The notes under the pieces are model-generated. The model was given only the letters and a program-made list of their open reading frames with translations, ran no database searches and was not told the origin of the DNA. From NCBI GenBank assembly GCA_028867755.1, contig JAGWFT010000002.1:96001-160000 (forward strand): 64,000 bases of DNA, written 5' to 3'. Position 1 is the stretch's first letter. Each line of letters opens with the position of its first letter. The DNA is from Nitrososphaerota archaeon. Lineage in GTDB: Archaea; Thermoproteota; Nitrososphaeria; Nitrososphaerales; Nitrosopumilaceae. This document shows positions 16,741-17,160 of the stretch, piece by piece. The translations under genes were made by a program, and so were the position numbers.

Positions 16741-17160
16741 AAGACGCTCAGTCTCAATTCACCCCGTCCCACGGACACCCCTCTTGAGACTTCGCTTTTT
16801 GTCTAATTGACGAAATCCTCGCTCACCTCTAACACCAGGATCGTAAAACTCTCTTGGTGTTTTTTTGCTTACGCAAAACCGAGGCTCACCGAGGTAGAGG
16901 TAAAATTTCGCAGTTCGTTAGCCAATTCACCCCGTCTGCTTTGCAGACACCCCTCTTGGCTATCTCTCTACTTCATCCTAACTTTGTTCGGACGGCACGA
17001 TTTCCTTCGTGCCGTTTTCCCTCTACCTCGCTTCGGACGGCTGCCGTTGGCAGCCTCTCGCCCTTCGGGCTCGCCTCGCTCGGATTTCGTAGGGGTCTCC
17101 GCTTCGCTCCGCACTCCTTCGACTTCGTTGATAGTCGTTTGGCAGGGGTTTGTCTAAGAA
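16741..17160. other. GC-rich multi-hairpin region (candidate oriT, single-strand origin or structured ncRNA)
   Basis: Many perfect inverted repeats, a duplicated covarying motif and an 11-bp long-range pairing. Confidence 0.7.

Follow-up and report, generated by a model that had tools for sequence, protein, structure and literature searches.

What is served by a GC-rich array of hairpins at the end of a mobile element in an archaeal chromosome? The question is raised by a 64,000-nt stretch of DNA from a Nitrososphaerota archaeon of the Nitrosopumilaceae (GenBank assembly GCA_028867755.1, contig JAGWFT010000002.1, positions 96,001 to 160,000 of the forward strand), referred to below as the window. 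An initial annotation, made from the letters of the window, had drawn attention to two copies of one hairpin motif with the same loops and different stems. Both copies were found where they had been reported, and they belong to a structured module of about 409 nt that folds extensively, is conserved in a family of related elements, carries a strong strand bias and is linked to its host elements in a fixed place and orientation. Our preferred reading, which we hold tentatively, is that the module is a cis element of single-stranded DNA (ssDNA) on the minus strand, similar to single-strand origins (sso), single-strand initiation sites (ssi) or packaging signals, and possibly locked by split triplex clamps.

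Folding both strands, as the initial annotation had proposed, placed each of them far below the energies of shuffled sequences, whether RNA parameters were applied (z -7.2 and -8.1) or DNA parameters (z -7.6 for the minus strand, -6.3 for the plus strand). With DNA parameters the minus strand was the stabler (-84.9 versus -71.6 kcal/mol). The GC content peaks at 0.56 in the module versus about 0.37 in the flanking sequence, and the window has exactly two occurrences of the loop pattern TTCACCCC..ACCCCTC versus 0.00 expected. The minus-strand fold consists of two long-range helices and about eight hairpins, most of which end in C(GNA)G or C(GNNA)G loops. Its parts are as follows (sequences are plus-strand readings unless stated otherwise):

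16743-17151, minus strand: whole structured module (about 409 nt), defined by boundaries conserved in alignments A1 and A2, folds, covariation and a loop census; the minus strand is under loop-level selection.
16751-16790, minus strand: motif 1, GTCTCAA/TTCACCCC/GTCC(CAC)GGAC/ACCCCTC/TTGAGAC; outer stem 16751-16757 with 16784-16790, inner hairpin 16766-16776 (outer and inner stems covary, helices 1-2), C-rich loop strands 16758-16765 (TTCACCCC) and 16777-16783 (ACCCCTC).
16810-16818, minus strand: 5' arm ACGAAATCC of a long-range helix, partner 17082-17090 (helix 3 in the covariation test).
16832-16878, minus strand: variable domain of two hairpins (ACACCAGG..CTTGGTGT and TTTTGC..GCAAAA), replaced by a different domain in some homologues.
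16890-16900, minus strand: 5' arm of an 11-bp long-range helix (helix 4), the exact complement of 17020-17030.
16919-16962, minus strand: motif 2, TAGCCAA/TTCACCCC/GTCTGC(TTT)GCAGAC/ACCCCTC/TTGGCTA; loops identical to those of motif 1, stems different; outer stem 16919-16925 with 16956-16962, inner hairpin 16934-16948.
16992-17015, minus strand: hairpin ACGGCACG(ATTTCCTT)CGTGCCGT, with variants GCCACG/CGTGGC and GCCATG/CATGGC.
17020-17030, minus strand: 3' arm of the 11-bp helix, partner 16890-16900.
17039-17055, minus strand: hairpin GGCTGCC(GTT)GGCAGCC, with variant GCCATGC/GCATGGC (helices 7-8 in the covariation test).
17060-17070, minus strand: hairpin GCCC(TTC)GGGC, on the minus strand GCCC(GAA)GGGC; length variants GCTTCGC, GGGTGCTTCGCACCC and GTCTGCTTCGCAGAC.
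17082-17090, minus strand: 3' arm GGATTTCGT, partner 16810-16818.
17091-17096, minus strand: internal G-run AGGGGT (minus ACCCCT), complementary to the motif loop strand ACCCCT and varying with the motif 2 loops in loci L007/L077 and L042.
17101-17107, minus strand: mini-hairpin of two base pairs, plus GCTTCGC, minus d(GCGAAGC), read from the sequence.
17120-17130 (within 17120-17137), minus strand: 3' hairpin CGAC(TTC)GTTG, with variants CAAC/GTTG and TTGAC/GTCAA.
17141-17149, minus strand: terminal GGCAGGGGT, a G-run with which nearly all homologues end, in the form GGCA(A)nGGGG.

The 11-bp pairing proved exact on direct reading, and the hairpins at 16992-17015, 17039-17055, 17060-17070 and 17120-17137, the GCTTCGC at 17101-17107 and four TCACC motifs, all reported earlier, were recovered. 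Two of the four TCACC belong to the C-rich loop of the mirror repeat, and the comparison of these motifs with an anti-Shine-Dalgarno sequence found no support. The GCGAAGC mini-hairpin is a true structural element, since its position is occupied by a hairpin of 5-6 bp in L007, L042 and L058.

Homologues were sought by BLAST in 39 related genomes, and by a pattern scan of public genomes and metagenomes. The BLAST search returned full-length copies in genomes G013 and G014 and motif-only remnants in G005 and G010 (the G010 sequence is also present in the public record behind L017). A second full-length, divergent copy was found in the genome of the window (G000), on the 925-bp contig C112 (L005:1-925). 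The pattern scan added many further copies, in records titled Nitrosotalea sp., Nitrosopumilaceae and Thaumarchaeota metagenome-assembled genomes (MAGs). After removal of duplicates the full-length family numbered about 20 distinct modules, 340-480 nt long, which came from Nitrosotalea/Thaumarchaeota genomes and from soil metagenomes; viral contigs, phage records and plasmid records held no module homologue. The initial annotation had envisaged related elements that lack a homologous structure, a scenario that this family excludes. On the plus strand, the first half of the members is ordered GCTC box, motif 1, long-range 5' arm, variable hairpin domain, second long-range 5' arm and motif 2; three to four hairpins, the two 3' arms, a G-run (CAGGGGT), a small hairpin, the 3' hairpin and the terminal GGCA(A)nGGGG follow.

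Covariation was measured on alignment A2 (18 members), using only pairs predicted on both strands, against 500 shuffles. Standard pairs filled 92.4% of the A2 cells versus 77.0% in the shuffles, and 30 of the 46 tested pairs had changed on both sides (in 112 cells); none of the 500 shuffles reached any of these measures. When the partner columns were slid as a control, pairing fell to 34-44%. In the 11-bp helix 10 of 15 pairs showed both-sided change, and the helix occurs as GAGGTAGAGG/CCTCTACCTC, GAGCAAGAGG/CCTCTTGCTC, GAGGTGGAGG/CCTCCACCTC and GAGGTAGTGCG/CGCACTACCTC. The ACGAAATCC/GGATTTCGT helix is replaced by AACGGC/GCCGTT, GCCGACACC/GGTGTCGGC or (A/G)CGAAGTCC/GGACTTCG(T/C), and the outer stem of motif 2 has at least seven distinct Watson-Crick versions among the homologues. 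The compensatory change first noticed between the two motif copies extends across the roughly 20 homologues. The intrastrand fold is real and under selection, as had been suspected.

The family has two alternative 3' ends, and mosaic members occur: L056 has a 5' half like that of L058 and a 3' half like that of L020. The 5' arm of its 11-bp-type helix (GAACGAGAGG) mismatches a 3' arm (CCTCCACCTC) derived from a different subtype, and L032 has a mismatched outer stem in motif 1. These mosaics, from metagenome and MAG copies, suggest recombination between modules. Shortened forms were also seen: motif 1 alone, adjoining an antitoxin gene, in L009/L024 (G005); one motif with a small hairpin and GGCAAAAAGGGGG, about 90 nt in total, in L010/L017; and a module that ends abruptly inside motif 2 in L025. 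The C112 copy is nearly identical to that of G014 and is preceded by a 70-aa open reading frame (ORF) resembling a ribbon-helix-helix protein; the contig is probably part of a second, unassembled element.

The remnants L009 and L025, and the recurrence of the invariant loop motif in many bacterial repeat elements, would agree with an array that has no function of its own and has accumulated at the element end as decayed terminators, selfish hairpin repeats or insertion-sequence-end scars. We consider this the least probable of all the readings: dozens of compensatory changes have occurred, elements with integrases of only 39-48% identity agree in the architecture, helix order, position and orientation of the module, and the module is present in two copies in the genome rather than as a dispersed repeat.

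Several known classes were compared with the module and set aside. Rfam, in which HEARO and group II introns are also represented, gave no match at the gathering score (the best hits at E up to 10 scored 10-20 bits versus cut-offs of 49-60), nor any match at the motif of the motif-bearing bacterial loci. RNase P and signal recognition particle RNA were rejected, both genes being found on another contig of the genome. A protein-coding origin was rejected: the long open frames come from the C/T-rich composition, and their frame and even strand differ between homologues relative to conserved anchors. On inspection, the GA positions of the internal loop misfit a K-turn, box C/D or H/ACA element. 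An integron attC-type site was rejected, the direct repeats that mark recombination lying outside the module, at 5107 and 17249.

The strand on which selection acts was read from the hairpin loops. In 20 members, 48 distinct triloops were counted. Read on the plus strand, 22 of them are C(TNC)G, which the minus strand shows as C(GNA)G, and N takes all four bases; no plus-strand triloop is C(GNA)G. The tetraloop C(GNNA)G was found 13 times on the minus strand versus once on the plus strand. The minus-strand GAA mini-hairpins that had been offered as a clue thus generalise to a 22:0 excess, and because of this loop bias we take the minus strand in single-stranded form to be the target of selection. 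Of all 64 triloops only GNA yields extra-stable mini-hairpins, d(GCGNAGC) melts at 70-76°C versus 39°C for r(GCGAAAGC), and mini-hairpins of this kind are known from RSF1010 ssiA and from the origins at which phages G4, St-1 and alpha3 begin their complementary strands (PMC13037366). The GNA loops, the mini-hairpin, the DNA-parameter energies and the lack, on inspection of both strands, of any promoter or terminator motif conserved family-wide favour DNA rather than RNA as the acting state.

Loop selection on the minus strand would also suit the main rival reading, a structured non-coding RNA of about 400 nt, transcribed from that strand with a start within the 100 bp between the module and the right attachment site (attR). 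Such an RNA would serve the element: a protein of the element might bind it as a scaffold or regulator, for example, or it might form the leader of the minus-strand toxin-antitoxin genes downstream. A GC-rich island in an AT-rich genome, together with strong covariation, is a classic sign of an RNA gene, and many of the minus-strand tetraloops are GNRA-like (GUAA, GCAA, GUGA). Minus-strand TATA-like sequences are present at 17197-17204 and 17226-17235, a block after the module is conserved in five loci, and an antitoxin gene lies just downstream on the same strand in many loci. The TATA-like sequence at 17226-17235 had been put forward as a promoter: it exists, as a putative promoter, and the candidate promoter is unconserved across the family. 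Other features speak against a transcript. Even at E up to 10 it has no Rfam family, the minus strand has no T-rich terminator after motif 1, GNA triloops with a C-G closing pair and a stem of 2 bp are weak in RNA (PMC13037366), and the excess of minus-strand G-U pairs is no greater than 11:6 or 8:8. An RNA of this kind is possible but, in our judgement, doubtful.

Pairs in the module are almost purely Watson-Crick across censuses of 800-2300 pairs. The plus-strand G-U to A-C counts (A-C being G-U on the minus strand) were 6:11, 8:8 (2304 pairs) and 11:29, depending on alignment and method. The near-pure pairing, without clear wobble asymmetry in the first two counts, is a further DNA-like trait.

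On the minus strand motif 1 reads GAGGGGT-hairpin-GGGGTGAA, which is a mirror repeat. The two tracts are mirror-image purines with T facing A (four G.G, one A.T and one G.G), as are the mirror-related purine tracts of the bacterial TMECO/PIT motif. The TMECO consensus is CCCTCNCCC-N3-6-GGGNGAGGG-N3-GGGNGAGGG; it forms a purine-motif DNA triplex in vitro, was undetected in vivo by dimethyl sulfate (DMS) footprinting and is of unknown function (PMC4666352). The contiguous order of that consensus (C-stem, loop of 3-6 nt, G-stem, loop of 3 nt, G-stem) is not present in the archaeal motif, which has no adjacent pyrimidine stem and in which a hairpin of 11-16 nt replaces loop 2. In most two-motif members, two unpaired runs elsewhere in the module are complementary to the loops; in the window these are the plus-strand AGGGGT at 17091-17096 and 17144-17149. 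The loop strands and the distal run change together in L007/L077 (CCCA, TCCC, GGGA). In L042 both loop strands and the distal run are all shortened to three, and in L049/L023 the three runs are all lengthened to five, with the A/T interruption lost. These variant lineages keep canonical purine-motif triads on the minus strand (G.G-C to T.A-T); the plus strand would need A.A-T, which misfits the parallel motif. Because the mirror tracts and the distal runs vary together as purine-motif triads, we propose a split triplex clamp, in which the assignment of runs to motifs is uncertain.

In another reading, a plus-strand RNA would clamp its G-rich 3' end in its C-rich internal loops through C+.G-C triples. 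Favoured by acid, this would be a counterpart of the triple helix that ENE and poly(A) form to protect PAN and MALAT1 RNAs. Such an RNA is very improbable, in spite of several agreements. The hosts are acidophilic, the number of G-runs equals the number of motifs, GGCA(A)nGGGG is followed by short T runs in many members, and the minimum-free-energy plus-strand fold joins the C-loops to the G-runs. However, loop selection falls on the minus strand, the A of the purine strand faces a third-strand A and not U/T, which misfits the parallel pyrimidine motif, and the T runs are short (2-4) and not universal. A G-quadruplex or i-motif built from the four runs would leave the complementary distal runs and the single-motif members unexplained.

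The motif has counterparts in bacteria. Pattern-scan matches were obtained in Bacteroidota (L015, L028, L031, L034, L037, L068, L079), cyanobacteria (L014, L016), Chitinophaga (L026, L074), Gracilibacteria (L022) and Propionibacteriaceae (L044). A chance origin (about 26 matches estimated by chance) was rejected for most of them, as their inner stems are complementary; L035, L036, L040, L060 and L064, in GC-rich coding sequence, appear to be chance matches. The bacterial intergenic elements have the same 20 loop letters. Their parts are TTCACCCC, a hairpin of the type GTC..GAC, ACCCCTCTCC, then a loop, GGAGAGGGG, N4 and GGGGTGAGGG. They are a 'double-tailed' TMECO/PIT motif whose loop 2 is a hairpin and in which a triplex could form on either strand. 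L044 and L022 carry tandem arrays with units of about 43 nt.

The archaeal module resembles TMECO/PIT/BoxC (Hoyne et al. 2000; Holder et al. 2015, PMC4666352) in its G-rich mirror purine tracts, in T facing A and the rule of G.G-C and T.A-T, and in loop letters identical to those of the bacterial copies whose loop 2 is a GTC..GAC hairpin. It differs in that the purine tracts lie in the internal loop of a closed hairpin, with the complementary run 150-390 nt away, and in that the motif is part of a larger single-copy fold tied to one mobile-element family rather than a dispersed intergenic repeat; TMECO was reported without any mobile-element association (PMC4666352). The ENE clamps of PAN, MALAT1 and transposon RNAs (PMC7583470) likewise have a stem-loop with the same homopolymer-like tract on both sides of an internal loop, a complementary tract near the end of the molecule, and tandem (double) versions. 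They are RNA, however, and form U.A-U triples with a poly(A) tail, whereas the module has G/C tracts and a selected purine strand, and the evidence favours DNA. The formation of purine-motif triplexes with RNA strands is disputed (PMC7583470), a further point against the minus-strand transcript.

The host element of the module is bracketed by two exact copies of a 14-bp direct repeat:

5107-5120: left copy of TTTAAAAAGTCTTT, beside the integrase gene.
17249-17262, no strand assigned: right copy of TTTAAAAAGTCTTT, probable attR; two exact copies in the window.

The repeats enclose a 12-kb element with an integrase-like gene (5059-6270), an AAA_10-type ATPase gene (9003-10787), small genes of unknown function and cargo; pheS and pheT lie outside, after the right repeat. 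The ATPase (594 aa) matches AAA_10 with E 3.6e-8 and has a faint PHROG match (E 0.009) to Zot-like filamentous-phage assembly ATPases. The module is at the integrase-distal end, inside the element and about 80-100 nt before the right repeat. By tblastn with the proteins of the element, int, the ATPase, the homologues of ORFs 11755 and 12137 and the module were found in one and the same arrangement and orientation in L065, L077, L023, L033, L042 and L041/L030, whose integrases are just 39-48% identical. L065 also has a direct repeat, of 11 bp, with one copy 32 nt ahead of int and the other 80 nt past the module. Judged against int, the ATPase and the o11755/o12137 homologues, the module keeps one orientation in 7 of the 8 loci with backbone genes. 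Among the 39 related genomes, the ATPase is present in exactly those with a full-length module (G000, G013 and G014; 3/3) and in none of the others (0/36, with the unpublished G010 and G011 counted among the negatives). The module is part of a family of small integrative elements of Nitrosotalea, acid-soil ammonia-oxidising archaea, with the general order integrase, FtsK/VirB4-like ATPase, small membrane proteins, cargo, module and attR. A survey of thaumarchaeal integrated elements makes no mention of hairpins, non-coding regions or origins, nor of this module (PMC6563490).

The cargo adjoining the module encodes a 991-aa GmrSD-type (DUF262) defence protein (13094-16069) and a ParE-like toxin with a 48-aa antitoxin (16254-16665); many other loci have homologues of the antitoxin-toxin pair next to motif 1. 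The interval from the module to attR holds a conserved block of about 50 nt (window 17165-17215, ..GGTTGATTTGTGATAAGACAGAAAATTAAAGGTTGAAGCG..), which is found in five loci (the window, L020, L049, L050 and L018) and could be an integrase arm site or a promoter. An AT-rich palindrome, TCTAAG-N5-7-TTAGA, directly follows the terminal G-run in the window (17155-17171), L019, L038, L049 and L050; other members have TTTCA-W5-6-TTGGAAG in its place. The right copy of TTTAAAAAGTCTTT overlaps the TATA-like region upstream of pheS.

The constant distance of 80-100 bp from the attachment core means that the excised circle places the module just upstream of attP and int. It might then act as duplex DNA, extruding a cruciform or H-DNA under supercoiling so as to aid or regulate integrase recombination, or to insulate the host promoter at attR. 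A need for both strands to fold would account for the near-pure Watson-Crick pairing, H-DNA classically forms from mirror repeats, and TMECO loci have been linked to genome rearrangement (PMC4666352). The 22:0 loop bias nevertheless indicates that one strand is optimised and not both, helices spanning 130-280 nt would be hard to extrude from a duplex, and DMS footprinting did not detect TMECO triplexes in vivo (PMC4666352); we regard a duplex role as improbable.

Under our preferred reading, in which the module works as ssDNA, it would act when the minus strand of the element is single-stranded. That strand would fold into a multi-branched, compact body rich in mini-hairpins, in which each purine pair (GAGGGGT and GGGGTGAA) may clamp a distal ACCCCT run of the same strand in a short purine-motif triplex (G.G-C and T.A-T), resembling TMECO/PIT with the pyrimidine strand supplied from a distance. 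The folded body would resist nucleases and single-stranded DNA-binding protein, and the fold would mark the strand for complementary-strand priming, for transfer or for packaging, a role like that of sso/ssi sites and of the filamentous-phage intergenic region.

The function of an sso is orientation-specific and depends on structure over sequence (PMC4595007). Rules of this type fit the module because its orientation is fixed and its sequence turnover is modular. The module is, as are ssoA/T/U/W of rolling-circle plasmids, ICEBs1 sso1 (PMC4595007), RSF1010 ssiA, the G4/St-1/alpha3 origins and the Ff intergenic region (150-500 nt), a non-coding region in which several stem-loops fold extensively in one strand. 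It shares with these sites the fixed orientation, a structure kept above sequence and carriage by small mobile elements, and with some of them C(GNA)G mini-hairpins (PMC13037366). It differs in lacking their sequence and their CS-6 or RSB motifs (the ssoA motifs CS-6 and TAGCGT/A are absent from the window copy and from nearly all homologues), in its archaeal host and in its triplex-type mirror repeats, and its element has no recognisable Rep or relaxase. Integron attC and CTX-phage attP(+) sites also combine a conserved fold with variable sequence, are single-strand specific and are carried by tyrosine-recombinase elements; the module, unlike them, is not the crossover site (the 14-bp repeat is 100 bp off), is four times larger and has no R/L boxes. 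The initial annotation had offered an origin of transfer or sso for an ATPase-nuclease, or a non-coding RNA: the single-strand-origin option is the one we favour, and an origin of transfer, or action of the ATPase-nuclease on the module, is conjectural, no Rep or relaxase being recognisable.

Several observations weigh against the ssDNA reading and its clamps. No Rep, primase or relaxase was recognisable in the element with Pfam and PHROGs, which leaves an ssDNA stage hypothetical, and the known sso types have no sequence similarity to the module. Filamentous phages package the coding strand, and the genes of the element lie on the plus strand, opposite to the proposed minus strand. In the minimum-free-energy fold the distal runs pair with motif 1 as an ordinary three-way junction, and the L007-type change can also be read as an inner stem plus one A-T pair, so the triad covariation is no more than suggestive. 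The GNRA-like tetraloops, which are also typical of RNA, the GC island and the TATA-like sequences upstream on the minus strand lean towards RNA. Wobble counts do not settle the strand: their ratios shift with the alignment. The numbers are small, and the RNase P control (4 GU and 0 AC in 1359 pairs) is just weakly different from the module.

The module is an uncatalogued structure, specific both to its elements and to one strand, through which the triplex repeats of bacteria are connected with a defined fold. To our knowledge, no sso has been described in archaea, nor is any cis-acting signal known by which the integrative elements of ammonia-oxidising archaea are replicated, transferred or packaged. 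The strand-specific fold and its exact co-occurrence with the ATPase provide a handle on how these elements move, and a mirror repeat of the TMECO/PIT/BoxC triplex type, of which bacteria have many, is now placed within a defined, testable structure, with its third partner supplied from a distance. The boldest form of our reading, to which we give less credence than to a minus-strand RNA or to the ssDNA element as such, is that a new family of archaeal mobile elements moves or replicates through ssDNA. The module would then be a single-strand origin or handling signal, the first from archaea, and its fold would be locked by two 'split' DNA triple helices of the purine-motif type, in each of which the internal loop of a hairpin clamps a distant C-run. 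If the triplex clamp is real, it would exemplify in nature the use of a DNA tertiary interaction by a mobile element; and if the split-triplex ssDNA reading holds, the long-unexplained TMECO/PIT/BoxC motif would gain a concrete biological role.

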